From assembly GCA_000004985.1 (NCBI GenBank), contig GG738880.1: 64,000 bases of DNA; one strand, written 5' to 3'. A program made the position numbers and the translations under genes. How positions within the stretch are numbered: the first letter of the stretch is position 1; each line of letters begins with the position of its first letter. This document shows positions 1-51,170 of the stretch, piece after piece. The stretch is from Naegleria gruberi (lineage: Eukaryota). Under the pieces are notes generated by a model that did no database searches, was not told the origin of the DNA, and worked only from the letters and a program-made list of their open reading frames with translations.

Positions 1-162
1 AACATTGGTGAGGAAGCTTCCAAAGCTGTGGAAAATAGTGAATTTTTGAAAAATCTTGTCAATCTCGATATGAGATACAATGAAATGGATATGAAACGAA
101 ATAGAAATGTTCCACCAAGTTACAGAAGGCCATACGATGATTCCACATGTATCATTTCTTAA
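1..162 (+). CDS. 3' end (C-terminal ~53 codons, partial) of a gene that starts upstream of the window; product unknown
   Basis: Frame 1 is open from base 1 to a TAA at 160-162 (NIGEEASKAVENSEFLKNLVNLDMRYNEMDMKRNRNVPPSYRRPYDDSTCIIS*). The codon usage looks coding and an AT-rich spacer follows. I do not recognise a domain. Confidence 0.3.
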   Translation, partial: NIGEEASKAVENSEFLKNLVNLDMRYNEMDMKRNRNVPPSYRRPYDDSTCIIS

Positions 163-684
163 CAGTTGTTTATCACTTTTTAAAGTAAATTAAATACTTT
201 AACAATAGACTCTGTGGAAAAATAAAGCCAAGATTAAGAAATTGAATATAGCCGTTCTGTAGTACTCTCGTACCTCTCCAATTTATTCATGTTTTTTCCA
301 TGTTTGATCATTGTATGTCTTAATGAATACTTTACCCATTCCGAATCTTCATTTCCTTAATCCAGTGATTAGCCCCATTACAGTGCATAAGAAATATAAA
401 AACCATGGAATTTTCAATGTGATGGAAGTTCAAATTGGTAAACTTTTCGCATTCCAACAGAACAACGTTGGAGCAGGCCAAACAAGATTTGTTTAGATCC
501 TTCACACACCTCTAGTAGTGGTAGAGTATGGAAGCACACAAACTTGATTGGTGAACATTTAAACATATAAAAAAACCGTTCAACAACAAGAACGCAAAAT
601 CGGTTGTGTTCATCATTTTTCTAGTGATTCGACTGCAACAACAGCTACAACCTTAATAGCGTATTTTAAAGCTATTTAAAAAGA

Positions 685-3600
685 ATGAGTGAAGCTCACA
701 CAGACAGTGCGGAGTCATCAACAACCACCAGTTTTTCATTTGCCACTCAAGTAAAAGAGAGGTTTGGAGAATGGATTGTTGTATTGAGGAATTCCAAAGC
801 GATTGATAGTAACAAGTGGAGGATTTTTCACACCCTCACCGAATTGTATATATTATATTGTGCTCTATTCATTCCAACGATGAGAAATTACGGTTATGGA
901 GAGTATGGACAGATCATGTTTAGTATCGTGGATTTTCCAATGCATTTTTTCTTACATTGGATTCAATATGAAGAAAGTTTCATAGTGAGTGGATTATTTG
1001 TGGGATTTTTAGTGTTGGCCTATGGTTTGCTGTTTGTTACCACATGGGCCTTCTCGAAAGGGAAACCTTTTAGGAAAAATCTTAGATCTCCCCTCATTAT
1101 CATCATGTACCTTTGTAGAATGTTATTTCCTCTCTTTATTCATCAAGTGATTGGATACATGGATTGTAGTTTGACTCACACTGTGCCCTACACGAGTAAG
1201 AACACTCTGAATCGATATTCAACGATAGCATGTTCAGAATCTCCGAATAGTATTCTTATTGGCCTGTCAGTGACCTTTCTCTTCTTCCTTCTGATATTTG
1301 TTATTGTATCAGAGATGATTTGCTCCGATATGCATCCAATGAGTAGACACATCTTTACACACGATAACTATTGGACCATGGTACTGCTGAGAGTGTGCTC
1401 ATTCATGAGCGTTCTCATCATGTTCTTAATCCCTATAGAATATCCCTATATATCATCAATTGTGAATATGGCTCTATCACTAATTGCTCTCATCATTCTC
1501 TTCAAGACACTTCCCTTCTACCGATCTATAAGCAGCTCTATTGTATTCGGTGTTTATTGTGGAGCACTTACAAGTTCATGTGGAACCTTAATAACCTTCT
1601 TCATCACCTCGCTCGCCTTAAACACTCCCAACACTTCATCTCCTCTCTTTAAGGAAGTTAGCGCGGGTCTTTCAGGGTTTATCGTTATTTTAGCAGTTTT
1701 GGGATTTTTGGGAGGTTTATCTTTTTTGGAATTATATCAGCGACAATTAAGAAAGACCATATTAAGGGAGGTGTTAAAGATGCGTTCTGTTTATAGACAA
1801 ATACTACCTGAGGAGAGTAATACAGTACTCTCACCTAATGCAGCTGCCACAGGTAGAGAGAATAATTTTCTTACTGTTCATCGTACTCCTGTGAAGAGAT
1901 TGTCAATTGATATACAATCGAGTTATACGACAGCTGATTCGGCTTATCAGCAATTTATGTTAAATGCTAGAGCTAGTGTGAAACAGTATAAGAAGGGATT
2001 GTTGTTATTATTGAGATCTGATTTGGTGGAAACTTCTAATACAACGAAAGATTTGAATGGAGAAACAGTTCAAATTCATGAAATTACAATGAGATTATGT
2101 AAGAATATTTTACAGAGAGGATTTGGAGATCGTCAAGTCATGGAAACTGTGGCAATGTTGTTCGCTTACAGACACATTTGCACTTCATCAAGTTTAACTG
2201 TAGCCGTCGAATTGTTACTCAAAAGTCAAAAATATTCAAACCTTCTTACTCACAATTTCTCATCGATCAAAATTACTGAAATTCAAAGCTTGGAAGAAGC
2301 TCNNNNNNNNNNNNNNNNNNNNNNNNNNNNNNNNNNNNNNNNNNNNNNNNNNCAGTTTGAGGAATATTATCAATAAGATAAGTGAGTTGACAATGGAGAG
2401 TGAACAAGTCTTTAAACAACTCCTATCGAGAAAGACAAAGAAAATACTAAGTTTGTACGCTTCATTTGTGGAAATTGTGTATTTTGATAAGGAAGGAGCT
2501 CATGCATTGTACTTGGAAGCCAATGCAATGGAAGAGCAGAAACCAGTCAAACTGCAAAAATACAAGACATCGAGAATTATGCCACAACCAATGTCAAAAG
2601 ATGACAACTTGTCAGAACAAGGTTCATTTCAAAAGAGAGCTAGTTTCTTTTCAGATGCTGAATTTGCTCACCAACAATTATTGGATGATGTATTGGAGGA
2701 AAGTGCAAGTGTTGCTGGCGCAGGAGGCGAACTCAAAAAGGATTACCTATTTAGGAATGCTTTGAAAACTTTAAAATCAAATACGGCAACTAAAATTTTC
2801 TATGCCATATTCTTATTACTGGGAGGATTTATAATTTTGGGCTCGATTGGTTTGTCCACTTATCAAGGGGCCATTATTAAGAAAAATATTGTAAATTTGA
2901 GATTAATTTGTGTTCCACAAATTTCACCAATTTCCACAATTAGAAATTTGAGAGCTTTCCAAAATTGGGTGAATATGTTTGTGTTGAATGAATATAGTTG
3001 GCCAGAACAAAGACATGGATTTTTAAATGAGTATATAACAGTAAGTTTTGCTTTAAAGAACCATTTCACATGAACTATTTATAGGCATATGTTGATGATC
3101 ATCGTCGAGTATTGGAACAGGACATTTCAGTATTGGAAGACTTGGTAAAATTAGGTCAATTGGTAGCGTTTGATGCATCTACCTATACAGCATATGGAAA
3201 ATCACAATATTCCTTCAGGGTTCCAAGTGTTAATGGAACTGATTCTTGGTCAAAATTACAATTTACTGGAATTCCAGAAAATAGAACACTGTCGATAATT
3301 GAAATGACTAATTCCTTATTGCAATATATGGATGAAATCAAAACTGTTCTTCCATTCAACGATTTGAATGCATTCTTCAATACAACCAATCAAACTGCCC
3401 GACATCAAATTCAAGAACGTTTATTGAACTCTACACTTCTCAATCCAGTTAATGATTTCAGTTTCATGTTACTATGGATTAATATGAAATCAAGTTCTTT
3501 ACAATACAAGGAATTCTGCTCCAATTTCATGAAGAAGAGCAATATTCAAGCCAATGACATGATTTACCAATTCGAATATTTTTTCATTGGAACATTATGC

Positions 3601-6004
3601 TTTTACATCATTATCGGTTTACTTTTCTCGTTATTCCTTCAATACGAGCTCACTTTCATCTCGAGACTGATTAAAGTATACGACAAGCAAATTGGCAAGG
3701 ATTTGATTGGAAGGGTTTATCAAACCCTTTCTACCAAAACTGATACAGAAGCCTCCCTAAGAATGTCCATATTTTCTCGAATGATGAGAGGAAATGTCTC
3801 TGTCATTGTGTTGGTAATTGCAATTTCACTTGTCATTCCATTGTGTGTTGGTTTAATGTTTTATGAGAGCAGGGCAACTATTAAGAGTGCAATGTTTACG
3901 TATACGAATGTTGCCCTTTCTTCTGAATGTTTGCAAAATTTACAAATGTCATCATTTTTCTTGACAGAGTTATTAACATACTATGGTCTTCCAATATTGA
4001 GCTATAATTCCATTTCCGTGAAAGGAAAAAATGTTAAATATGGACATCCATACTTTAACAAATATGATTTTGTTGGAATGTATGCAGAAATCAGAAAACA
4101 AGCAGATAGTCTAGGTGCAGAATGGTCTGAATTAATTTATGGTGATGTAACAAAGCCTGACGATGATCCTGTCATTGGTTTATATCCAGTTTTGGATGCC
4201 CTTCTGGTAGATGTCAATAATTGCAGTCTTTACTTGGCCCAACGTAGTTTGGAAGAAACTTATGAAAACTATTTGGAGTATTGTGCTGGAATTGAAAAGA
4301 TTGTGACGTTATATTTGACAAAAACGACACAAGTTAGTGAGTTGACCAGAGATCATTATATTCAGCAAATGAAAGACCCATCAAAATTGATAGATCCTTT
4401 GGAGTTATATTTGCAACACAATGACTTGTTTAGAATGTCTATTCCATTGACTAAAAAGTTGCAAGTTTACATGCAAGAGTTTGTAAGAGTTTCATCTGAA
4501 CTTTCGTTTGGATTCTTGATCGGTTTTAGCATTTTTGGATTCTTATGTATTGGAGTATTAGGTTATTTACTCTTCAGCGTAATGAATAATAATTGGGATT
4601 CCCTTCAAAAGACCAGAATGATGCTCAATTACATTGCCCTGGATTACATTGATAGAAATGAAGTTTTACGAAACCTAGTTCTCTATCATAGTTATCCTAA
4701 TGTCATTCTCGACAAGATTAGCCACAAGACAAGCAAACAAGAAGATCGTCTTAGTATTTCCAGCTTTACCGAAATGATCAACAAACACATTGATGGAACA
4801 ATTCTCATAGACGAATCTGGTTACATTGATGCAATGAACAATGCAGCTCACAGATTATTTGGCTCGAAATCTTCTGACTTTCTTGGAGCTCAGTTCTACA
4901 AGCTATTCGAAGAAAAATGTTTGGAAATGGTAAAGAAGGCATTCTGTTCTATAATGGACGCAGCAAAGAAAGCATCCGAAAGTGCAGAAAATCGAAGCAT
5001 GGTTGAAACTTTGGAAGTTGATTGTCTCAGATTGAATCAAACCAAGTTTCCTTCCAAGATTTCCTTCTTCTCCATGAATATGTCTGAAAAGGGACTAATC
5101 ATTGTCTGTACCATTAAGGATATCACTTCGGAGACTAAACAAAAATCACTCCTTGAAGAGGAGAAGAAAAACTCTGAAAATCTATTGAAGAACATTCTCC
5201 CAGAAGGAGTAGCAGCCAGATTAAAGAAGGGTGAGACGTTCATTGCAGAGAAACTCAATGACATTACATGTTTCTTCTCAGACATGGTTGGATTTACAAA
5301 AATCTCAAGTAACATGCAAGCTACTGATCTTGTGCAAATGTTGAATTTTGTGGTGAACGGTTTCGACAAGTTGACTGAAAAGTATGAGTTGGAAAAGATT
5401 AAAACCATTGGTGATGCCTATTTTGTGACTGGTGGTTTGAATGGTTGCTCTGACCATCCTGAAAATATGTTGAAATTCGCCATTGAGACATTTGACGTGA
5501 TTAAGGAATTTAATCTGAGTGGAAATTTGAAAGAAGGTGTATATTTGAATATTAGAATTGGTATAAATACTGGTGCATGTGTGGCTGGTGTAATTGGTGT
5601 AAGTATTCTAGTTTACAATATTTTAAATAATATTTAAATATTTAAAATTATGAAAGATTAAAAAATTTGCCTATGATCTATGGGGTGATACCATCAATAC
5701 AGCCTCTCGTATGGAATCAACAGGTGTTCCAGGAAGAATTCAAATTTCCAGAACAACCTATGAACGAGTTTATGATTTGGGTTTCGAATTTGAAGAACGA
5801 CAAGTTGAAGTGAAAGGAAAAGGTCAAATGCAAGCATATCTAGTTAATGCCAAACATCATACAAATCCACTTATTGAATTGGTATCTACTGCAATGATTG
5901 ATGAAGAAGATGATGATCTTTCTATTGCAAGAATTCTTCACAGCTCGACTAATACAGCACCAGAGGAAATTCAACAAGAAACCTCTCCAACTCCAACTCA
6001 ATAA
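685..6004 (+). CDS. Very large polytopic membrane protein ending in a class III nucleotidyl cyclase domain, with adenylyl-cyclase-type specificity residues, preceded by a PAS-like domain. Proposed exons: 685..(gap)..3040, 3085..5598, 5657..6004.
   Basis: ORFs 685-2376, 2357-3073, 3112-5637 and 5711-6004 are joined by GTAAGT...AG introns at 3041-3084 and 5599-5656, and the frames match across both. There are two clusters of hydrophobic helices (about 700-1650 and 2790-4600). A PAS-like segment reads ILIDESGYIDAMNNAAHRLFG...IIVCTIKDITSE. The cyclase motifs are FSDMVGFT, KIKTIGDAYFVTGG and GACVAGVIG|IKKFAYDLWGDTINTASRMESTG, the last split by the second intron. The N gap at 2303-2352 lies inside the coding region, so the true length and frame across the gap are unknown. 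Confidence 0.7.
2303..2352. other. Assembly gap (run of 50 N)
   Basis: A literal run of n characters. It sits inside the first exon of the cyclase gene. Confidence 0.99.
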
Positions 6005-6106
6005 ATCATTTCATTCTTGTCTCTATCCAAATATCAATAATATTTAAATAAATTAAATTGAATATTATTATACAAATATTATAGTACACTCTATGAAGGT
6101 TTCATA

Positions 6107-8604
6107 TTAAACATATAATTGTGCTGGAGGTTTAAATGATAATGTTTTACCAACAGGGAGGATGGAATCACTAGTGCCTACTCTTAATTTGTAATTTGTG
6201 GTTTGAGAGTTAACACTTGGTCCATTCAGAATATTGATTGTAGCAATTGTTCCATCAAATGTTAAATCGAACGATCCTCCTAAATAATTCACTCCTCTCA
6301 TCTTGATAAATTTGGCACCCAAAAGAGATACATCTTTTGGAGCTAGCAACATATAGTTGTCATACATTTTCAATCCACCATAGCCATTCTGAATACTTTG
6401 AATAAATCCTCCTGCTCCTGTCAAAAAGTTGAAAGACCCCATATCAAGGAAATGTTTGTAAGGATCAGATGTTTCTGAAATGATATTAAATCTATCATAA
6501 TATTCGTCAATTAATTAGTTGTATAAGATATTGAGAAACTTACGGAGGGTGAATATTTAACAATGATCTCTTAAATGCTTCTGCAGCCAATGTGAAATTG
6601 TTCAAATCCAAATAAGTAATAGTGTGCATAGAATAAGTCATGGCTGGTCCTTCACTCCACATTATCTTGTCATAATATCTAATGTCATTATATCTTATTT
6701 GTGTTGGCATTTCGTACATGAGAGGATAGCCCAATAATACCACATCAGCTTGTTTTACATATTCACCAAAGTAAAAGTTACCTCTTGGGAAACTTGCATA
6801 TTCTGGATGAATTTGGTTGACAGAATCAAATAGAATAGTCATATTTCCAGCAATATAGTTCCACTCTGGAGTGATAGATTTTCCTAAAACAGAAGCTGCC
6901 TTGTTTCCAAATCTGAGAGCAATTTGGGCAACAGCATTTGTGAAAACTTCATTGTCAACACCGGAATACAATGGAAAACCAATACCAAACTCATCTGGGC
7001 CAACAACCTTATTTATATCATAGTGAACTCCATCAACGTTCTTTGTTACTCTGCTAGCCCAGAACTTGGCAATCTCAGAAGCCATTGGATAACCAATTGA
7101 ATTCAACCACTTGGTATCCTTAGTCAATTGCCAGAATAATTGTAAAGCAAATGAAACATCTCCAGTAACATGTTGTTCCAATTCATTAAATAGGGCTATC
7201 AGGTCAACCTCCCTACCAGAAAATCCAGTCTGGAATGGATACATTGCTCCCTTATAGCCATACTTTTTGGCATGGGATTTGGCCTGCTCCAATCGATCGA
7301 AACGATACTGAATGAGCCCTTTAGCAAGCTCTGGATGCAAGTAAGCCAGTGATGGTAAAACGAAACACTCTTGATCCCAGAAAATCAACCCATTATAAGA
7401 ATCGGTAGCAACTCCTCCTGGTGAAACACCCCAATGATAATCCTCTCTGGTACTACTCAACAAGTAGTACAAGGTACTATTAATCTTGGCTGCAAGTTCA
7501 ACATTTCCACCCAATTCAATACCACTCTTCCATAATTCTGCCCAAGCTGCAACATGCGATGAATAAAGCGACTGTTGATTGATAGTGATACCCTTGATAA
7601 AGTCAATGGATGCATCACCCAATGGATCATCTGAATCGATACTGGTTCTAATGGCAGTGAGGTAGGTAAAAGTTGTTTCAGTATTTGCAGATACTTGAAT
7701 ACTGGATGGGAATTGAGATGTAACCACAGCTACTGTAACTCTTTCAGATTCAGGTGTTTCCAAACTTGTGAGTTGACCAACATGACATTTTGTGTTGAAA
7801 TTATTGGTATGAGTACATTCCACTTGTTTGAAAGAAATATCAGCAGAAGCAGGACTATCCAAATTATTAATATTAATAGTAATTGGGAAAGAATTTGAAT
7901 TGGAAACCTCAATTTGATGAACCAACAATGATCTGTACACTCTATGAGCATAATAACGTTGCTCAATTTGTGCATTTGATAAATTAAATCCTCTCAAATA
8001 GACAGCTCTCTCAATATCCAATCCAACTCCAAATTGCTGTAAATTTGGAGAACTCAATTTCACTTTTTGAGTGGCAGGTATTCTAGCTCTAGTACTGTGA
8101 AATCCAATTAATTTCTCAATCACTACATATTTTCCCACATACACTCCACCAACATAGATATTATCAGAATCCACAACAGTTCCCAAATAGCCATTAGAAA
8201 TTGATGGCATAAAATTCTTATCTATACTCCATCAATTCAAATCAATCAATTCATATATTAATTTTTGAATTTTGATAAAGTGTACAATTCCATATAATAT
8301 TCATATAATTTTCAAATATTCATATATATTTAAATCATTAATTAATAGAAATAAAGAACAAAACAATTATATTGTGAATTACAAGACACGTGATACATAC
8401 CTGAAGGCTCATTAGGAACAGCCAATAATTGTCCCTCAGCAATACGATCATTCCAATTCTTATTATTATTATTACTAAATATCAAAGGCTTGTGCTGATG
8501 AAGATGTTGTTGTAGTTCGGCATTGGCAAATAAATATAAATTCACGGAGGATGAAAACATTATCATCATCATCATCATCACTCCATATATCATCATCATT
8601 CGCA

Positions 8605-13558: not shown

Positions 13559-16500
13559 TTACAAGAATTCATCAGCAGAAAGTGGTTGGGAAGTTGACTG
13601 TTGATTATTGGAATGAGAATTGGATTCTGAAGTTTTAAGTTGATCATTTTGAAGGAGGGAGAATGAGGTACTATCTGATGCAAGTTCAGAAGAAACATCA
13701 TCATCCTGAGCATCAAAGAGATCTTCTTCCAATTCGTCACTTCTCAATACTTCATCCCTAGTCCAAACCTTATCTTCCTTGAGGAAGTGTCCTATAAATT
13801 GTGCCTTAGCCTTTTGCTCCTCGTAGTATTTTAATGATTCGTCGTGGGTATGGTGAGCTTTTTCTTGAAGTGGAGATCTGAGAAGAACACGAGAGAAAAT
13901 TATGGCAACTTCCTCCAATGTTAAACTATTGAATTTCTTATACTTTAAAACCTCTCTCAAGAATGACATTAAATAATGGAAAGTGTTAAAATGTACATCA
14001 GGTAACATGGAAATAAGATGGTGGCAAGTTGCAGAATTTGTGCTAGCATTCAAGCACATTTGATAAAACTTGAATGGGACAACAGGCTCTCTCAAAGATT
14101 CCAAAAATGTCATTAAAGATTCTGCAATGGAATGATTTGAAACTGGATTAAGGAGTGGTGATCCTTCATCGAGACATTGTCTTATATAGTGAACTTCTCT
14201 AGCAGCACCCGAATATTTAAATAATCCTTCCTCTTTCATGCCATTGTGATAGATTAAATCGATAAGTCTCCACAGTTCCTTAGGTATCTTCAAGTCCTTA
14301 TCGAATGATGACAACTCTACATCGCTCTCACTTTTTAGTACTGGGCACTTTTGTTTGACCAATTTATCCAGAGTAGATCCAAAACATGATTGAATATATG
14401 TACCTGTAATGGAAATAAAGTGATCTCTACCATTCTTCAAGTGAAGGATAAGAATATCGTCAATCTTGTCCTCACCACTCAATAATTTTAGTGCTTTTTG
14501 GGTGCTTACTGAAATTGTAACCTTGATTTCTTCAGTTTCACCTGGAATAACATATCCTTCCAAAGGTTCAATTGTCATGTATGGTTTACATGGAGCTTTT
14601 TCATGTGGCTGAGGCACAAATTGGTATTCGCAAACAACTTGGCCTGTGTTCTTGAGAAGGATGGTTTGGGTGATTGGTTCCTCATATTTTACAGCTTCGA
14701 AATCAATGCATTGGCCAGTGATGGCAACTTCTGGTAACAAATCATTTTCAAGTTTGTCCAACATTTTGATGATATCCAAGTAGCATTTCTTGTACTTTTC
14801 CTCAACAATCTTCTTTACACCAACTTCAAAGCAGGCAGTCACTGGCTTGTGGTCTGACATTTTATATTCCTTGAATGATTTGTAAGATTTGTGTACGATG
14901 GTACTCTTCTCATCCTCTCTCCACAAGATACGATCCGTATAAGATGGTACACGTCCCTTTTCACTGGTATCATACACATCAGTACCACTGTCGAACTTGT
15001 AGGTTGGGTCAAAATTAATTTCACCTTCAGCAAACCCAACAAATGCATTCTTGGCGTTTTTCTCAATCATTAATTGGTCATATTTGAGAAGGAATTTGTA
15101 ATCTTGTTGTTTGATTTTTTCTCTGACAATCAAATTTGGTTGATTGATTCTATAGTTCAAGTCTCCATACCAAAAGAAGAAGTCGTGTTGGTCAGGTCTA
15201 TAAAGTGATGGATTTCCAAAATCTGTCTTTTTAACAATATCGTGGAAGTTTTGATTTCTTCTCTCGACAGCTCCCATGTGAGGAGCCAAGTGAGCTGTAA
15301 TAAAACAGAATGTAGAATCAAAAAGTTTGAATCTGACACCAACACCACCCTTGTTACCCATCATGCCCATGATACCAACACCTTCAGCACAATTTCTTAC
15401 TTCATTAATATCATTAGCAAAGGATTCCTTAATGAAAATGGCATGATAAATACCGACAAGTTGTCTGGCAGATACGAGTTTGTATCTGTTTTGTTTGGCC
15501 TCATCAGCAAATGTCTTGATAAGAAGGTTTTGCCATTCTTGACCAGTTTCAGTTTCTTCTTTCAAAAGTGATGCTGCAGTCATGTCTATTTCTTGCATAC
15601 CAATAGCATAGATATCAGCCTCAAATTCATCGAGATGAAGCCATTTGGCCAAACTAGAGTCAGCAGATGGGAACTTGTTATTCACATTCCATGCACAAAC
15701 AACAATAGAAATTGGTGTCACTTCAGTGAACTCGTCTTCCTTAAGCTTGAGTTGTCTTTGAATCCAATTGTCCTTTCTTGAAACTTCTTGTGAGAGAGTA
15801 TCTGTTGCTGTATTAATGGTTGCTTTTTGAGCAATATCATTCGATTGATTTGGTCCATTTTGCGAGAGGGAGGTTTGACGATTTGTTTTTTTGAACATAT
15901 CAATGGAGATGTCTTGACATTCATCGTTTTTGACTTTTTGTGCCTTGTCTTTTTGCATTCTTTGAATGTAATGATTACACCATTCTGATTCAGTGGAAGG
16001 TGATGGTATTATTTCAAAATTTGTTTCTGCATCAACCAAAAATTCTGTTAATGACATTTCATTAGTTGACCTAAGAATTGATGAGCGATTTGATGGAGTA
16101 TTGCTGACAGGAGTTTTGACCACTGGTTGCTCCACAATAATTTCATTAGGTTCAGGTGTAGCATCATTAACAAGTTTACAAGCTTTTAAAAGTGAAGAAA
16201 CAATTAACCATTGTGAACTTGCTGATTCGCTTTGAAAATTATAAACAATAGCTTGTCTTTTAAAGAATAGATCAAAGTGTGTTTCATCCACAATTTTAAC
16301 TCCAAAATCTTGTCTCTTGATTGGTTGAAAATCTCTTATTCGGAAGCTATTTGTTTCAACTGAATATTCCAAAATCATAATAGCAAGATTTGTTGGTTTA
16401 TCAGAGTTACCAACAAGTGCTAACAACACTGATTCCAATTCCTTCTTTGCAAAAACAGCTGTACTCTTTGAAAGTGGTACATTCTTCTCCGATGTATTAT

Positions 16501-16681
16501 TTGTTTTTGATTTGTTATTTGATGATGTATTCTTATCTGATCCTGTTGCTGATGATCCAGCACCTCCACCAAGTGCCGTGCTCATCTGATTGTGCTTTAA
16601 CACTACAGAGACGATAAATTTGCACTGCTCTGTTGATCGGAGAACTTCCTTGCAAAATTCTGTCCTCAGAGGTTGTTGCAT
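13559..16681 (-). CDS. Inositol polyphosphate 5-phosphatase with a C-terminal ASH and RhoGAP domain (OCRL/INPP5B-like)
   Basis: A single 1040-codon ORF. The 5-phosphatase catalytic motifs are present (FFFWYGDLNYRIN, RVPSYTDRILWRED, KPVTACF). They are followed by a RhoGAP-like region (EEGLFKYSGAAREVHYIRQCLDEG...LMSFLREV). Confidence 0.8.
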   Translation of the reverse strand: MQQPLRTEFCKEVLRSTEQCKFIVSVVLKHNQMSTALGGGAGSSATGSDKNTSSNNKSKTNNTSEKNVPLSKSTAVFAKKELESVLLALVGNSDKPTNLAIMILEYSVETNSFRIRDFQPIKRQDFGVKIVDETHFDLFFKRQAIVYNFQSESASSQWLIVSSLLKACKLVNDATPEPNEIIVEQPVVKTPVSNTPSNRSSILRSTNEMSLTEFLVDAETNFEIIPSPSTESEWCNHYIQRMQKDKAQKVKNDECQDISIDMFKKTNRQTSLSQNGPNQSNDIAQKATINTATDTLSQEVSRKDNWIQRQLKLKEDEFTEVTPISIVVCAWNVNNKFPSADSSLAKWLHLDEFEADIYAIGMQEIDMTAASLLKEETETGQEWQNLLIKTFADEAKQNRYKLVSARQLVGIYHAIFIKESFANDINEVRNCAEGVGIMGMMGNKGGVGVRFKLFDSTFCFITAHLAPHMGAVERRNQNFHDIVKKTDFGNPSLYRPDQHDFFFWYGDLNYRINQPNLIVREKIKQQDYKFLLKYDQLMIEKNAKNAFVGFAEGEINFDPTYKFDSGTDVYDTSEKGRVPSYTDRILWREDEKSTIVHKSYKSFKEYKMSDHKPVTACFEVGVKKIVEEKYKKCYLDIIKMLDKLENDLLPEVAITGQCIDFEAVKYEEPITQTILLKNTGQVVCEYQFVPQPHEKAPCKPYMTIEPLEGYVIPGETEEIKVTISVSTQKALKLLSGEDKIDDILILHLKNGRDHFISITGTYIQSCFGSTLDKLVKQKCPVLKSESDVELSSFDKDLKIPKELWRLIDLIYHNGMKEEGLFKYSGAAREVHYIRQCLDEGSPLLNPVSNHSIAESLMTFLESLREPVVPFKFYQMCLNASTNSATCHHLISMLPDVHFNTFHYLMSFLREVLKYKKFNSLTLEEVAIIFSRVLLRSPLQEKAHHTHDESLKYYEEQKAKAQFIGHFLKEDKVWTRDEVLRSDELEEDLFDAQDDDVSSELASDSTSFSLLQNDQLKTSESNSHSNNQQSTSQPLSADEFL

Positions 16682-44443: not shown

Positions 44444-47400
44444 ATGTTCTCTTTCAATAAGGTTTCCATCAACTCTACAAGATTTACCTCCTTTCTACTG
44501 CTCTTGTTTATATTTCTTGCTCATCTTTCAATAACCACAACTTTAACTAATAAGGAAATAATTTTGCTTCCTTATTGTTCCTCTGTGGTAGTTTCTCCAC
44601 CTAGCCAGAGATTATCTTCCAATTCACTCACAATAACCGTTACAGCACCTAACGATATTTGGTAAGTTAACAAACTTTCCTATGTGAAATGTTAAATTTC
44701 TAATAAGGTTAATCGTATCGAATCAATATAAACCTCTTCAAAACACCAATGTGGATGCAACAATACTTCTGAGAGCCTACGTTTTCCTCTCAAATCCACA
44801 AGGACAAGCCAAATACATTACCTCCGCCTCAATAATATCTTCCACTTCATTCACAGTTCAGTTTACCAATCTTGCAGCTAATGAACATTATGGATTATTC
44901 TTATTTGATGGGATGTCCTATTTGGAGGTGGAAACTGGTAGTGCACTTCGATTGGTTCCACTTTCAATCTTGTCAATTCATGAATACTCGACTGGGAGTG
45001 CAGCATTTGATTCGTTTAGTCCACAGAATAGTTATGAAAGTTCGATGGGAATGTTTTGTATGTCTCTGGCAGGTAGTTCTCTTCCTTTGAATTATGTTTC
45101 ACAAGCTGATAATGTGAAAAGTAGTCAAATTGATTCGATTAGTTTGCAATCGAACAAGTTGAAAATGAACGGAAAGTGGAATGGACAAATATTCAATTAT
45201 CCAATCACTGAATTTGAAGATGGAGGTTATACCTATGAATTATCGAATGAAATTACTGTAAATTTCCATTCACTTTCCAATACTCAACTCAACATTCCAA
45301 TAACTTTACAGAGATATTTAAGTGCTGCCTTCGAACAAGTCAATGCTCTTGATCATCCAGACGAAACAGCAAGAACAGCAGATCCATCCGAATTAGAATA
45401 TCTATTCGTTGGATATTCCATGAATTCCTTTACCTACAAAGTTAGCACCGATCCCAACAATTCTCCAGAATGGACACAAAATCTTTCAGATAACTACGCA
45501 TTAGAAACAGACATCCCAACTCTCATGACCTATCCATACTATCGAGCAGAATTCCACGAGTTGACTTCTGGAAATCCACTCATGACCATCATTATTAAGG
45601 ATGGAGTTTTGACCATGTCCAAGAAAGTTCTAGGAACAACTTCGATGGAATGTCCAATGGGATCTGTCAGGAATGAAAATCAACACTTTTATCGTGGCTC
45701 TACTTTTCATTATATTGCCTATTCGACTATTCATCCAATGTATACTTTTGATTATTCCACTAGAAATTGGAAGTTGAATACCCAAATTGATGTGAGCTCT
45801 GCTGATGGAAACTTGGTTGCCAATCTAACAAATTTTGATAATACTCTCTCTACAGAAAGTTCTGATCATTTAGTTTCGGTTACTTTATCAGATAATGTCC
45901 TTCAAGATTACGAAACTTTCTTCAATGAACACGTCATCATTGGAAAACCAGATCACCGAACTCCAATCTCTTCCATAACTGACCTAGCTCTCCTCCACAT
46001 AGACGATCTGGGCAACTCAATCTCCGGTCCTCTCATCACCCAGGAAGACTTTCGTCAGGAACTTGATTGGAATTTTGGTTTTTGTGATGAGAAAGTTGGT
46101 TCTCGAATGGGAAATCAATTGTCAAACTTTTTTTCTTCGACTGATTATACTATTGAACAATTGCCAGAATATGGAACGAGATTGAGTTATGAAGGTGGTG
46201 TGCAAGTTGTAAATTCTGGGTCAATTGAGATGAAGTTTTCAAATCATGAATTTTTGCAAGATTTCACAATTGAAGTTGACCAATCTTTGTTGAGATATAA
46301 GGAGCCAAAGGTTGATTGGTTGAATTTTACGGTAATTCCTGACTTGTCTTCTAACGGAAGAAATGCTACGATTCAAACAGATTCGTATAATAGTGGAGAA
46401 GCTGTTGGCGAGTTTAGTGTCGAATTAACTTGTTCGAATCAGATAATGATATTTAATTCAACTGTGCAACTGTTTAGTAATGTTGGTAGCGGTCAGAATT
46501 TCACATCTAGATTTGATATTACCAGCGATTTCGAATATTGTAACACTTTATCGATAGTTTCTTCTTGTAATATCAGAATTTCAGTAACCAGACAGGCATT
46601 ATGGACCAATTTACAAAAGGAACTCAGTACCACAAGAAGTGTCACTATTGATTATGGTTATTTCATTCCAAGATGTCAAATTCAAGTCAATGAGCCTTTC
46701 GTTTGGATTGAAACAATGTTATTAGAATCTGCTTATTTTACTCTTAATCAAGAAAGAGGCGAATTCACTAACAATATTTTAGTCACCTTGAAAACCAACA
46801 GTTCACAATCAGCATTCAATCCAACAATTAGAGCCTCACTTATTCCAAATATAGATAATCCATTTCACTCAATTGGAGACTTTACTCAAATAATGCAACA
46901 AGAATTTGTCACTTTGAATTTTACAATTAAGAGCAGTAACATATCAAGAATTTTATCTGAAAGATCACAAAATACCTTCTATACATTCAATATGAATCTC
47001 ACTCTATTAGAAACTCATTCTTGTTGGTCAACTGAAGGAAAGGGAGGTTTATTTCCATTTTCCTTCCAAGTTTTATACGAATGTCCTATTGGATACACTG
47101 GAATACAATGTGATATTCCAATTTGCTATGGTTTAAACTCAACCAATCCAAATGCATGTTCAGGAAATGGAAATTGCATTTCTCCAAATAGCTGTGTATG
47201 TCATGCAAACTATACTGAAGGAAACTGTTCAATTCCTTTGTGTTTTGGAGTGAGGGGAGATAACTCTGAGGTATGCTCTTCGAAAGGCTCTTGTGTCCAA
47301 GCCAATGTTTGTGGTTGTGAAGATGGACACACTGGATTGGAATGTGAAATTCCAAAATGTTTCAATATTGCTGCTAATGAGAGTGTTGTATGTTCTGGTC

Positions 47401-50400
47401 ATGGAGATTGTTTTGGCGTGAATAATTGTTCATGTCACGAATCATATTTTGGTTTGAATTGTGAGCTTTCCAATATATTTTCCAATGTTTCGAATAGTTC
47501 ACTTTCTTTCAATATTTCCACCTCAAATAACGAAACACTTTACGAAAATTCAACTTTTACTTCCAATAGATCAATCGTTAGTGATCAGAATAATACTTTG
47601 AACTTCACCGAAAGTATTAGAAATTCAACAATCAATAATTCGAGCATTTCCATTCCTGAAAACTCAAATTCAACCATTTCACAAAACTTTTCAATGGATT
47701 CTAATTTAACAAACATGGTTATTGATAATTCCACAACCGAATGCAATAGTACATTACTTACAATGTTGAACAAAACTATTTCTTCAAATAATATTTCGTC
47801 TAATTGTTCAGGTTGTGAATTTGCAAATGAAACATTAATTGGCAATGTGAGTGAGATTGTTAGAAACACTTCCAATTATACATATCCAAATAATACAGCT
47901 TCTAATGAAGGTATTTCTGCAAATGACAGTTTATCTTATTGTTCGAATGGCTTGGTAAACGAAACAATGACTAATTTAACAGTTATTGGAAATGAAACTC
48001 TCATGACCAATAACAGTACATCGAGCATGAATTCAACTTCTATTGGAAGCAATAATTTGACTCTTTCAAACGAAACTCTTGTCGATATGCAGAACGGAAC
48101 TAGCTTGAATAGTTCTAATATGGAAAACAATACTTCCACAATTTTGGGAAGGAATGAGACCTTAAATGAGACAATTTATGTCAATTCAACAAGTATTCTT
48201 TCAAATGAATCTGTTATAACAAATGAAACCTTAACCAATCAACAAAGCAACTATACTTCCAATTTAGGAAATTACCATAACAATACTAGTCTCAATACCA
48301 CCCTAAACCCAACCAATTTAACACTCAATGCTTCAACAGTAGCCAACAATTCATCAGAAAACCATTTCAATTTCTCAATTCCAGTTTCTGAATGGTCATG
48401 TAACATGACCACCAACATATCCAACCAATGTTCTGGAAATGGCCAATGCACCTCATCCAGAAACTGCTCATGCAATGATGGTTTTAGTGGCCAGCAATGT
48501 CAATTCATCATTCCTTCTCCAATTTGCTCTGGAAACTTTATCCAAGTTGAAAAAATCATTAACAAAGATCAATCAATTTATCTGGAAAGATTAATGATGG
48601 ACAAAAAGTGTCAGAAAACAATTCCTCTCATGACATATAGAGAAGTGCTGTTGGAGAATGTTACCTATAGTGGAATGAATTTGAGTGATATTGTCAAGTT
48701 GTATTCAGTTTTTGTAGATTCGAATGGAAATAAGCTTATTTCATTCGATTCTCGTTTATTACTCGAAAAGAAAGATATGCTGACAGTTTGGAGAGTTGAT
48801 TCACAAGGGTCTTCCACTTCCAAATTGACCATTCCTATCAATTATGGTATTCACAGTGAGTCGACTGGTTCAACATTTGGTTTAATCAAATTTGTTAATC
48901 AAAATAATGAGCTATTTGCCATAACTATGAAAGATGACAGTTCTATAATTGCTGTTTTAAAAGTAGATTTGGAAAGAAAGCAAGCAAATTTATTATTTGA
49001 TTTTGAAAATGAACTTCTTACCTTTTCGAATATTGTAAATGGAAATCAAGTTTACAATCCAATTACAAACAAGACTATTTTCTCAGTTATTGTAAACTCA
49101 AATCAATCCAACTCTTACCTTATTGAAATAGACCTATCAAGTGATCAGAAAAAAGTGTCAGAATTGAAAATTCCTCAGTTGACCATTGACAGTTCACTTT
49201 CGCTTCTTCTTACAAATCCAACAAGTGGTGAACAATATTTACTATCAAGTGGACAAACAGAAACCACAATAAGTTCCATTCAACCAAATATAGAATCTGA
49301 AAATGTCACTTTTACAATTTTGGCATCTGATTCTGATTTTACAATTTCCAAATCGGATACTGTAATTGTTGAGGAGAAACAAGACGAAAGTGAAAGCAAG
49401 GTTGTGATTCTTAATGTTGATACTGGTATTTCACTCATTGTTTCAACGAATCGATTAGTTTCTAATAGAGAAATCTTTTCAAAAAGTTCACAAAAGGTAA
49501 TTTTTGAAAATCCAAATATTTTGTCAATTATGTCAAGTTCAAATTTGGACTCAATTTCACTTTCCATTTCTTCCATGTCAACTTTTAATGTTCCAATTGC
49601 TAGCTCAGTTCAAATACAAATTGAAGGAAGGTTGACTTTGACAGATGTCATTTCGTTTATTGTTTTTAAACATGAAGAATCTGATTCGATTATTGAAGAA
49701 TTACCAATTCAGACATTGAATAGTCGTTCATTAGATTCGTCTTTATACTATTTCACTACGAGGGATGTTTCGAATAGTTTACCTAAACAACTTTTTAATT
49801 CAAAAACATTCAAGGTGAAAGTTTATATCAAATTGTTGACGAATGATTTAATTGGAAATCCAATTTATTTTCCTACAAATATGGAAATTACCATGTTTAG
49901 ATTTAAATTGGAAAATATTTCGCCAAAATTTGGTTTTTATGGAAATGAATTAATTGTTGAATCTTCATTTATTCCAATTCAAAGTTTAATCTATGTGAAT
50001 TTAAAGATTACTGAACTTTCGAATAGTGTAATGACTATTCAGTGTAAAGTGTTAAATCTTACACATTGCAAATTTGATATTCCATTAATAGAATCTGTGG
50101 ATACAATGGTGCAAGTCAAGTTATCAATCACTAATCTTGGATTAGAAACTGTATACGATTCTTTCCATTCTTTCAGATATTTTGATCCATCCATGGTAAA
50201 TGTCAAAGATTTGACACATTTTGACATTTCTATTACTTTCCCAGATATTCCATATGTAAATTCTTCAATCAAGCCATTAATTTCATTTATTCCATCTAAT
50301 GAAGGAACTTTGTTATTATTCGAAATGAACAAAAATGAAGTTTCGTCTAATAATTCAGCAACTTGTGGAACTGAACTAACTCGACAAATAGTTGGATCCT

Positions 50401-51170
50401 CCGATTTGTTCAACATTTCAAATTCAATTTCGTTTGATGTGAAATTGTTAACTTTTTCAAATATCGAAAATGGAAATTTATTTGAAGTTTGGATTTCAAA
50501 AAGTCAAAACGCAACATTCTTTGCTTCCTTATCACTTTCGAATAGCATTCAAGAATTAACAATTGGTCAGCTCAATATCACTCGAGATTCTGAACTTGTC
50601 AAGAAATCAGTCAATTGTCAGTTTAAATCGAATAGATTGTATCACTTGACGGTTCTTGTGCAAGAATTTAAAATTTCATGGGAATTGAAAGATGTAGAAC
50701 TGAATGCTGTTGAATGTTCAGCTCAATATTCAAAAGATAATTCCAAATTACTTTCGAATAATGGAAATGTGAAAGGATATCAAGTTGCTATTGGTCAAAG
50801 TTTCGAATGTAGTCAATTAGTTTCAGATACTGCGATTATTCCAACATTAGCTTTGAGTGGAATGAAGGAAGTTTGTGTTTCTTGTAAAATATTGAATTTC
50901 CTGTCTGCAGAAAAGGAAATGTCAATCGATTCCTTTTTAGGAGGTTTGATTGGTGGCGTGGGAGGTTTCTTATTACTTTCATTGACAGTTTCCTTGATTA
51001 TTTGTTGCATTATTCGAAAGAAACGAATGAAAACATACAATTACGTCTACCATTCCAGTAGAAACTTGGAACGAAACCAGACAATTCAAGATTTATTCGC
51101 AAGTGCTTCTCCATTGGGTGCTTCTGAGGATTTCGATATTATAGATGAACATCCTTCTTATTTCGTCTAG
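44444..51170 (+). CDS. Giant type I membrane glycoprotein with a signal peptide, tandem EGF-like repeats, a hyper-N-glycosylated Ser/Thr/Asn-rich stalk, one TM helix and a short cytoplasmic tail. Proposed exons: 44444..44661, 44708..51170.
   Basis: Exon 1 has the signal peptide (MFSFNKVSINSTRFTSFLLLLFIFLAHLS). A 46-nt GTAAGT...AATAAG intron joins it in phase to the 2139-codon ORF. Four Cys-rich EGF-like repeats lie at about 47090-47460 (C.IP.C.G...CSG.G.C.....C.C...Y.G..C). Dozens of NxS/T sequons lie at about 47460-48400. A fifth EGF-like unit sits at about 48400-48500. The TM helix (GGLIGGVGGFLLLSLTVSLIICCII) lies near 50950. Confidence 0.7.

Follow-up and report, generated by a model that had tools for sequence, protein, structure and literature searches.

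A probable receptor-type class IIIa adenylyl cyclase of Naegleria gruberi, truncated in its public gene model

Introduction

Among the known membrane-bound cyclases, the trypanosomatid receptor adenylyl cyclases, which have a single transmembrane (TM) helix, and ACG of Dictyostelium share one principle: an extracellular sensor is joined to one cytosolic cyclase domain, and the protein acts as a dimer. In Rv1625c (Cya) of Mycobacterium tuberculosis and related bacterial class IIIa enzymes, a membrane anchor is combined with a coiled coil and a single cyclase domain that holds all six catalytic residues, and the active form of Rv1625c is a homodimer that has two symmetric sites. Mammalian AC1-AC9 have TM helices in a 6+6 layout, carry the half-domains C1 and C2 in one chain and are regulated by G proteins. 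Here we describe a gene of Naegleria gruberi at positions 685-6004 (+ strand) of a 64,000-nucleotide stretch of contig GG738880.1, which we call the window. It probably encodes a receptor-type, homodimeric class IIIa adenylyl cyclase of 1764 amino acids (aa) that the public gene model gives in truncated form. All residue numbers below refer to this protein, in which an assembly gap has been closed.

The Naegleria protein shares with Rv1625c the anchor and the single six-residue domain; its coiled coil is a putative one, and a symmetric homodimer is what would be expected of it. Unlike it, Rv1625c is bacterial and about a quarter of the size, has 6 TM helices, and lacks large extracellular domains, a PAS domain and a TPR region. 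AC1-AC9 are alike in their total of 12 TM helices and in class IIIa catalytic chemistry, and they give the highest overall sequence scores; however, the Naegleria protein has one complete catalytic domain, an 8+4 arrangement of helices, and extracellular bundles plus PAS in place of the mammalian features. The trypanosomatid enzymes and ACG differ in having one or two TM helices and sensors of the periplasmic-binding-protein-like or CHASE type, with no 8-TM block, TPR region or PAS domain.

A further likeness is to two Dictyostelium proteins. TmcB and TmcC of Dictyostelium discoideum are the founding members of the Pfam family PF25474, and the resemblance rests on a TPR domain that scores above the Pfam cut-off. 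To our knowledge, Dictyostelium TmcB has no cyclase domain. It is reported in two papers as a regulator of the cyclic AMP (cAMP) pathway in sexual development (PMC8516963, PMC12750705). The receptor role of adenylyl cyclase membrane anchors is itself an active question (for example PMC4821796, PMC12505454); a chimera of CqsS with the catalytic domain of Rv1625c has been made in this context (PMC4821796).

Eight plus four transmembrane helices and two large loops

A hydropathy scan and AlphaFold2 (AF2) models agree on 12 TM helices, the number that an earlier note on this DNA, made from the letters alone, had given. That note had arranged them as two six-helix bundles, the layout of mammalian AC1-9 and of the Dictyostelium ACA type, and in this it was wrong. 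Eight helices lie within residues 43-350 and four at residues 728-749, 976-997, 1048-1070 and 1285-1309. The last four form two hairpins, each enclosing a loop of ~215-225 aa that is predicted to be extracellular. The transporter-like 6+6 picture drawn from the supposed bundles fails with them, since the layout is 8+4 with two predicted extracellular helical-bundle domains.

The N-terminal 8-TM block (window 811-1734, + strand; residues ~43-350) has a conserved Cys pair, C161/C183, in the loop between TM3 and TM4. In the AF2 model of the N-terminal 821 residues, the predicted local distance difference test score (pLDDT) exceeds 90 over residues 20-370, and the fold of the block has no solved analogue. 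Because this first block has eight helices, the TPR region, the PAS domain and the cyclase domain would all lie in the cytosol and both large loops outside the cell. This orientation agrees with the conserved cysteines C768/C956 and C1211 and with several N-x-S/T sequons that loop 1 contains.

The putative sensor module runs from TM9 to TM12 (window 2789-4578, intron 1 included), with all its parts on the + strand. TM9 (2789-2854) is followed by predicted extracellular domain 1 (2855-3576) and TM10 (3577-3642), then by a conserved cytosolic linker of ~50 aa (3643-3792; residues 998-1047), TM11 (3793-3861), predicted extracellular domain 2 (3862-4503) and TM12 (4504-4578). This linker carries a near-invariant K1016/G1020 motif, with the family consensus KxxIGKIYHxL, and the motif suggests a conserved signalling or interaction element placed between the two sensor hairpins. 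Helices are predicted to be continuous from the extracellular bundles through TM12.

In the structural models, both extracellular loops are predicted helical bundles whose fold resembles bacterial NIT/PilJ/TorS sensors, and in fold similarity the bacterial sensor bundles came out far ahead of anything else. The bacterial four-helix-bundle sensors that we compared were the NasR NIT domain, PilJ, TorS, NarX/NarQ and the 4HB_MCP chemoreceptor domains. The Naegleria bundles differ from them in being eukaryotic and in being split by a TM hairpin rather than contiguous. They also lack a profile match: the NIT, 4HB_MCP and PilJ profiles gave no hit at E<=1 in this protein or at E<=0.001 in 26 relatives. 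The likeness is thus likely one of fold and working principle, by analogy, and not of family membership. We do not claim an internal duplication of the two TM-loop-TM halves, for which hhalign gave a probability of 19%.

The membrane part might instead be mainly a transporter or channel, with the cyclase as a coupled output. Ciliates and apicomplexans have cyclases of this kind that are linked to ion channels or P-type ATPases. On this reading the large loops would be structural and would not sense ligands. Cyclase fusions to transport modules do occur in other protists, and no function is assigned to the 8-TM block, which is modelled with confidence and conserved throughout the family. However, the membrane part matches no transporter or channel family by sequence or by fold, and its loops are far closer to bacterial sensor bundles than to anything else. 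We consider a transporter or channel quite unlikely and keep the extracellular sensor as the preferred assignment.

The gene is longer than its public model

The coding sequence (685-6004, + strand) is divided into three exons by two GT-AG introns, and an assembly gap of 50 N interrupts exon 1. It opens with the ATG at 685, downstream of an in-frame stop at 667-669. The part of exon 1 before the gap (685-2302, + strand) encodes residues 1-539 plus one base and is collinear with paralogues starting at their N-termini; the part after the gap (2353-3040, + strand) encodes residues 583-811. Intron 1 (3041-3084, + strand; 44 nt, GT..AG, phase 0) would lead to a stop codon if read through, and its removal yields the junction NEYIT/AYVDD, which aligns gap-free with paralogues. 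Exon 2 (3085-5598, + strand; residues 812-1649) is a single uninterrupted open reading frame (ORF) in which TM10-12 and PAS are followed by the putative coiled coil and the greater part of the cyclase domain. Intron 2 (5599-5656, + strand; 58 nt, GT..AG, phase 0) falls within the cyclase domain between GVIG and IKKFAYD, and the spliced product fits the family consensus VAGVIGxKKFAYDLWGDT. Exon 3 (5657-6004, + strand) supplies residues 1650-1764 and the TAA stop. Since TM10-12, PAS and most of the cyclase share one exon and the paralogues are collinear, the arrangement favours one transcript for the membrane and cyclase parts.

The gap (2303-2352) is written as 50 N. Because the reading frame shifts across these positions, the length of the N-run is a placeholder. 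With the C-terminal 1182 aa as query, two proteins called from ORFs (P0001 and P0002) were found, both on a single ENA metagenome contig of 7828 nt (L001; ERZ929261, contig k127_488436). This contig is 97-99% identical to window 1-7002 and reaches across the gap, which points to a very close Naegleria strain in the sampled metagenome. Over the pre-gap part of exon 1, its differences from the window lie mostly at third codon positions and include no indels. Its positions 3052-3178 bridge the gap with 127 nt that encode 43 residues (HKSEGIISRGYSKIQLIKKNSELIIALHKDFFKELMNDPIKVS). The concern that a segment might be missing or extra at this place is settled by the contig. A second cyclase domain hidden in the gap is ruled out, as the 43 residues are ordinary ones with no cyclase motif.

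The gene is already public as NAEGRDRAFT_69773, a 'predicted protein' of 1317 aa (EFC42310.1 / XP_002675054.1 / D2VLG7; P0092 in our protein set). This model removes the same two introns as our long model, with the same intron-1 junction. The two models differ within window 1780-2400 and upstream of it: the public one starts at Met366 (MRSVYRQ; window 1780), leaving out the entire N-terminal 8-TM block (~365 residues), and it treats the surroundings of the gap as an intron, by which ~80 residues of the TPR region are spliced out.

It could be that the public model is correct and that the protein starts at M366, the upstream 8-TM ORF being a separate gene or untranslated, in which case the cyclase would keep 4 TM helices only. 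The opening of EFC42310.1 at residue 366 of the long model is what speaks for this. Against it, reading from the ATG at 685 one meets no stop codon within residues 1-366, nor from there to the gap; a stop does lie just upstream of 685. In N. fowleri and N. lovaniensis, paralogues align from their N-terminus through the 8-TM region unbroken and have the same block joined to the remainder; P0024 aligns over residues 12-808 in one stretch. Compared with the near-identical strain of contig L001, residues 1-365 show 25 substitutions, of which 16 are at third codon positions, and 0 indels, versus 4 indels in the upstream non-coding DNA. Finally, EFC42310.1 also skips ~80 residues at the gap, so it is an automatic workaround. 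A start at M366 is thus very improbable. The open frame, the unbroken alignment of paralogues, the substitution pattern and the gap-free intron-1 junction are our reasons for retaining the long model, and the public gene model NAEGRDRAFT_69773 is truncated. The practical outcome is a correction of EFC42310.1, which lacks ~365 N-terminal residues and ~80 around the gap.

Two other N. gruberi paralogue models, P0012 (1402 aa) and P0036 (1061 aa), fall short of the length of their counterparts in N. fowleri, perhaps through the same kind of truncation.

One cyclase domain with six catalytic residues

The protein has a single class III cyclase homology domain at residues 1532-1713 (window 5245-5848, + strand, split by intron 2). 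Its match to the Pfam family Guanylate_cyc (PF00211) reaches 183.6 bits against a cut-off of 21.9 (E 3.6e-54) and covers profile positions 3-182 of 183 in one stretch. The motifs FSDMVGFT, KIKTIGDAY and FAYDLWGDTINTASRM are present. D1544 and D1588 align with the metal-binding Asp residues of AC9 C1; with AC9 C2, K1584 and D1656 align at the adenine-specifying positions and N1663 and R1667 at the transition-state positions. All six canonical catalytic residues are found within this one domain, which on its sequence is class IIIa and for which ATP is the expected substrate.

Among solved structures, AC9 scores highest overall (E 2.6e-65), and its C1 as well as its C2 can be aligned with the query domain. 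The best single-domain matches are the mycobacterial adenylate cyclase chains 7yzi (E 2.9e-44) and 5o5k (E 4.3e-44), which we take to be of the Rv1625c/Cya type.

No second cyclase domain was detected by Pfam on the gap-closed N-terminal half, by a motif scan in six frames of the whole window, or by comparing the known domain with the remainder of the protein by BLASTP. By the same three approaches the chain holds a single domain and no canonical pair of C1 and C2. Because that domain carries all six residues, it would have to pair with a like domain and not act as a C1/C2 pseudo-heterodimer. That an ATP-specific enzyme would pair in this way follows from established class III cyclase biochemistry. 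On the motifs the earlier note was borne out: it had read a single class III domain, the two metal Asp in FSDMVGFT and IGDAY, the adenylyl-type Lys and Asp, and a first cytoplasmic loop with no cyclase motifs. Its proposal of homodimer action is supported by the same residues.

That the protein is instead a guanylyl cyclase, has dual specificity or serves as a catalytically dead sensor is the least probable of the alternatives, for although PF00211 takes in both specificities and guanylyl cyclases of the atrial natriuretic peptide (ANP) receptor type also score well (E 6e-42), the purine-specifying positions hold Lys1584 and Asp1656, the ATP pair, and not the Glu and Cys of guanylyl cyclases, the metal Asp and the Asn/Arg pair are intact, and the same catalytic residues are kept across the family, which argues against decay to a pseudo-enzyme.

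TPR, PAS and coiled-coil parts

The long cytosolic loop between TM8 and TM9 measures 377 aa once the gap is closed. The earlier note had seen no cyclase motifs in it, which is right. The loop does have features of its own: it contains a helical-repeat region (window 1942-2554, + strand; residues ~420-649, with the gap inside it) that includes a TmcB-type TPR at residues 553-645. On the window sequence alone the TPR_TmcB profile (PF25474) scores 31.2 bits, and closing the gap raises this to 48.4 bits; the cut-off is 27.

The PAS domain (window 4792-5127, + strand; residues ~1381-1492) matches the Pfam family PAS_9 with 48.6 bits against a cut-off of 27 (E 1e-12), in agreement with the PAS-like segment noted before. 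It lies directly upstream of the coiled coil and cyclase domain. The sole solved relative that sequence comparison gave is a distant one (E 7e-4), and no NCRFLQ motif of the LOV type was seen in it.

Just before the cyclase domain stands a putative coiled-coil linker (window 5140-5223, + strand; residues ~1497-1524, ...KKNSENLLKNILPEGVAARL...), which occupies the site of the cyclase-transducer element in class IIIa cyclases. It gives a weak match to the C-terminal part of HNOBA (E 0.05), aligns with the pre-C2 helix of AC9 and is conserved in the family consensus.

A Naegleria family

With the N-terminal half as query, an exhaustive HMMER scan of 1.84 billion representative proteins returned 72 relatives. 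Among the 26 long ones, TPR_TmcB is present in 24, PAS in 24 and the cyclase domain in 21, and the combination of all three occurs in 21. The catalytic motifs FSDMVGFT, KIKTIGDAY and YDLWGDTINxASRM are near-invariant in the family. Its named members come from N. gruberi, N. fowleri and N. lovaniensis only; the others are metagenome or read-archive sequences. On its named members the family is Naegleria-restricted, and it is TmcB-related. The uniqueness that the earlier note implied does not hold, given the deposited EFC42310.1 and the 21 of 26 long paralogues that have the same TPR_TmcB, PAS and cyclase domains.

Naegleria is described as having 'at least 81 cyclases' (PMC9928731), and we read the present protein as an uncharacterised member of this known expansion. 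In the literature we found no paper on this architecture or on any assay of a Naegleria TmcB-type cyclase.

A more distant sequence was found on another ENA contig (ERZ16299754, NODE_4526; positions 560-5497 of L002). Its intronless ORF of 1645 aa, P0005, is only ~29% identical and has the same architecture: multiple TM helices form an N-terminal block, TPR_TmcB matches weakly, and PAS is present together with a cyclase domain that keeps the K/D/N/R residues. The contig is compact and gene-dense, and a tubulin-tyrosine-ligase-like gene adjoins. P0005 may represent the family outside Naegleria.

Proposed mechanism and its weak points

Taken together, the parts described above follow one another from a cytosolic N-terminus through the 8-TM block and the TmcB-type TPR region to TM9, extracellular helical bundle 1 and TM10, and from there through the conserved cytosolic linker to TM11, extracellular helical bundle 2, TM12, PAS, the coiled coil and the cyclase domain. 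The most likely function of such a protein is to detect an extracellular cue and, as a homodimer, to produce cAMP. Two chains would form a parallel dimer via the coiled coil and the cyclase domains, and the coiled coil would bring the catalytic domains into a head-to-tail arrangement with two symmetric ATP sites, like that of Rv1625c. Binding of a small extracellular ligand by both extracellular bundles would displace TM helices, and this displacement could run via TM12 and PAS to the coiled coil and so set cyclase activity. The PAS domain may serve as a second, intracellular input that is integrated with the helix displacement, and the 8-TM/TPR part may be an additional regulatory or scaffolding module.

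Several points weigh against this assignment of a homodimeric receptor cyclase. Residues 1-365 are absent from EFC42310.1, and we include them on the grounds of ORF continuity, homology and substitution pattern. The 43 gap residues were taken from a strain that is 97-99% identical, not from GCA_000004985.1 itself. Helical bundles inflate structural scores, and the loops match no sequence profile, which makes 'ligand sensor' an analogy. The cofactor of the PAS domain is not assignable from one distant solved relative (E 7e-4). We found no published enzymatic, expression or localisation data for the protein or its paralogues. Last, there are many paralogues in one genome, which may make heterodimers conceivable.

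If the assignment of a receptor cyclase is right, the family offers a cyclase with confidently predicted extracellular sensor-like bundles and continuous helices to PAS and the catalytic domain. Because the predicted bundles are joined to both by such helices, one could test directly for regulation by a ligand. Moreover, the TmcB module is physically joined to a cyclase in this family, whereas its link to cAMP signalling in Dictyostelium is only a genetic one. As paralogues are present in the pathogen N. fowleri, the family is a possible, unvalidated lineage-restricted signalling target.

It is tempting to speculate further that the TmcB membrane/TPR module is a receptor or regulator acting directly on adenylyl cyclases, which in Naegleria has become fused to the enzyme, and that the bundles are a bacterial-type four-helix-bundle sensor of an extracellular small ligand. 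We regard this wider idea as doubtful. If it were true, the fusion would be a 'Rosetta stone' for a physical partnership of TmcB with cyclases, given that the cyclase-less TmcB of Dictyostelium affects cAMP signalling genetically, and the Naegleria protein would be a eukaryotic cyclase regulated directly by a ligand through a bacterial-type four-helix-bundle sensor.

Other genes in the window

Two of the window's ORFs, both intronless, match EFC42312.1 and EFC42317.1 of N. gruberi NEG-M exactly, on a 416-kb scaffold. A dictyostelid origin is rejected on these matches, and the dictyostelid cyclases in whose light the gene had at first been viewed are for this reason not the relevant frame. Other ORFs of the window are likewise eukaryotic and include a kinesin, an OCRL-like 5-phosphatase with RhoGAP, RtcB and an ABC transporter. 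The convergent neighbour of the cyclase gene (window 6107-8210, - strand) encodes a glycoside hydrolase family 65 protein (GH65 central domain, E 2.9e-52) and is apparently split by at least one intron. At 13559-16681 (- strand), an intronless ORF of 1040 aa combines an inositol 5-phosphatase with an OCRL-like ASH domain and RhoGAP, the OCRL/Dd5P4-type arrangement; its exact sequence is absent from the protein collection, so its public model probably differs. At 44751-51170 (+ strand) lies an ORF of 2139 aa with teneurin-like EGF repeats and otherwise no Pfam match, which may encode a large surface protein.

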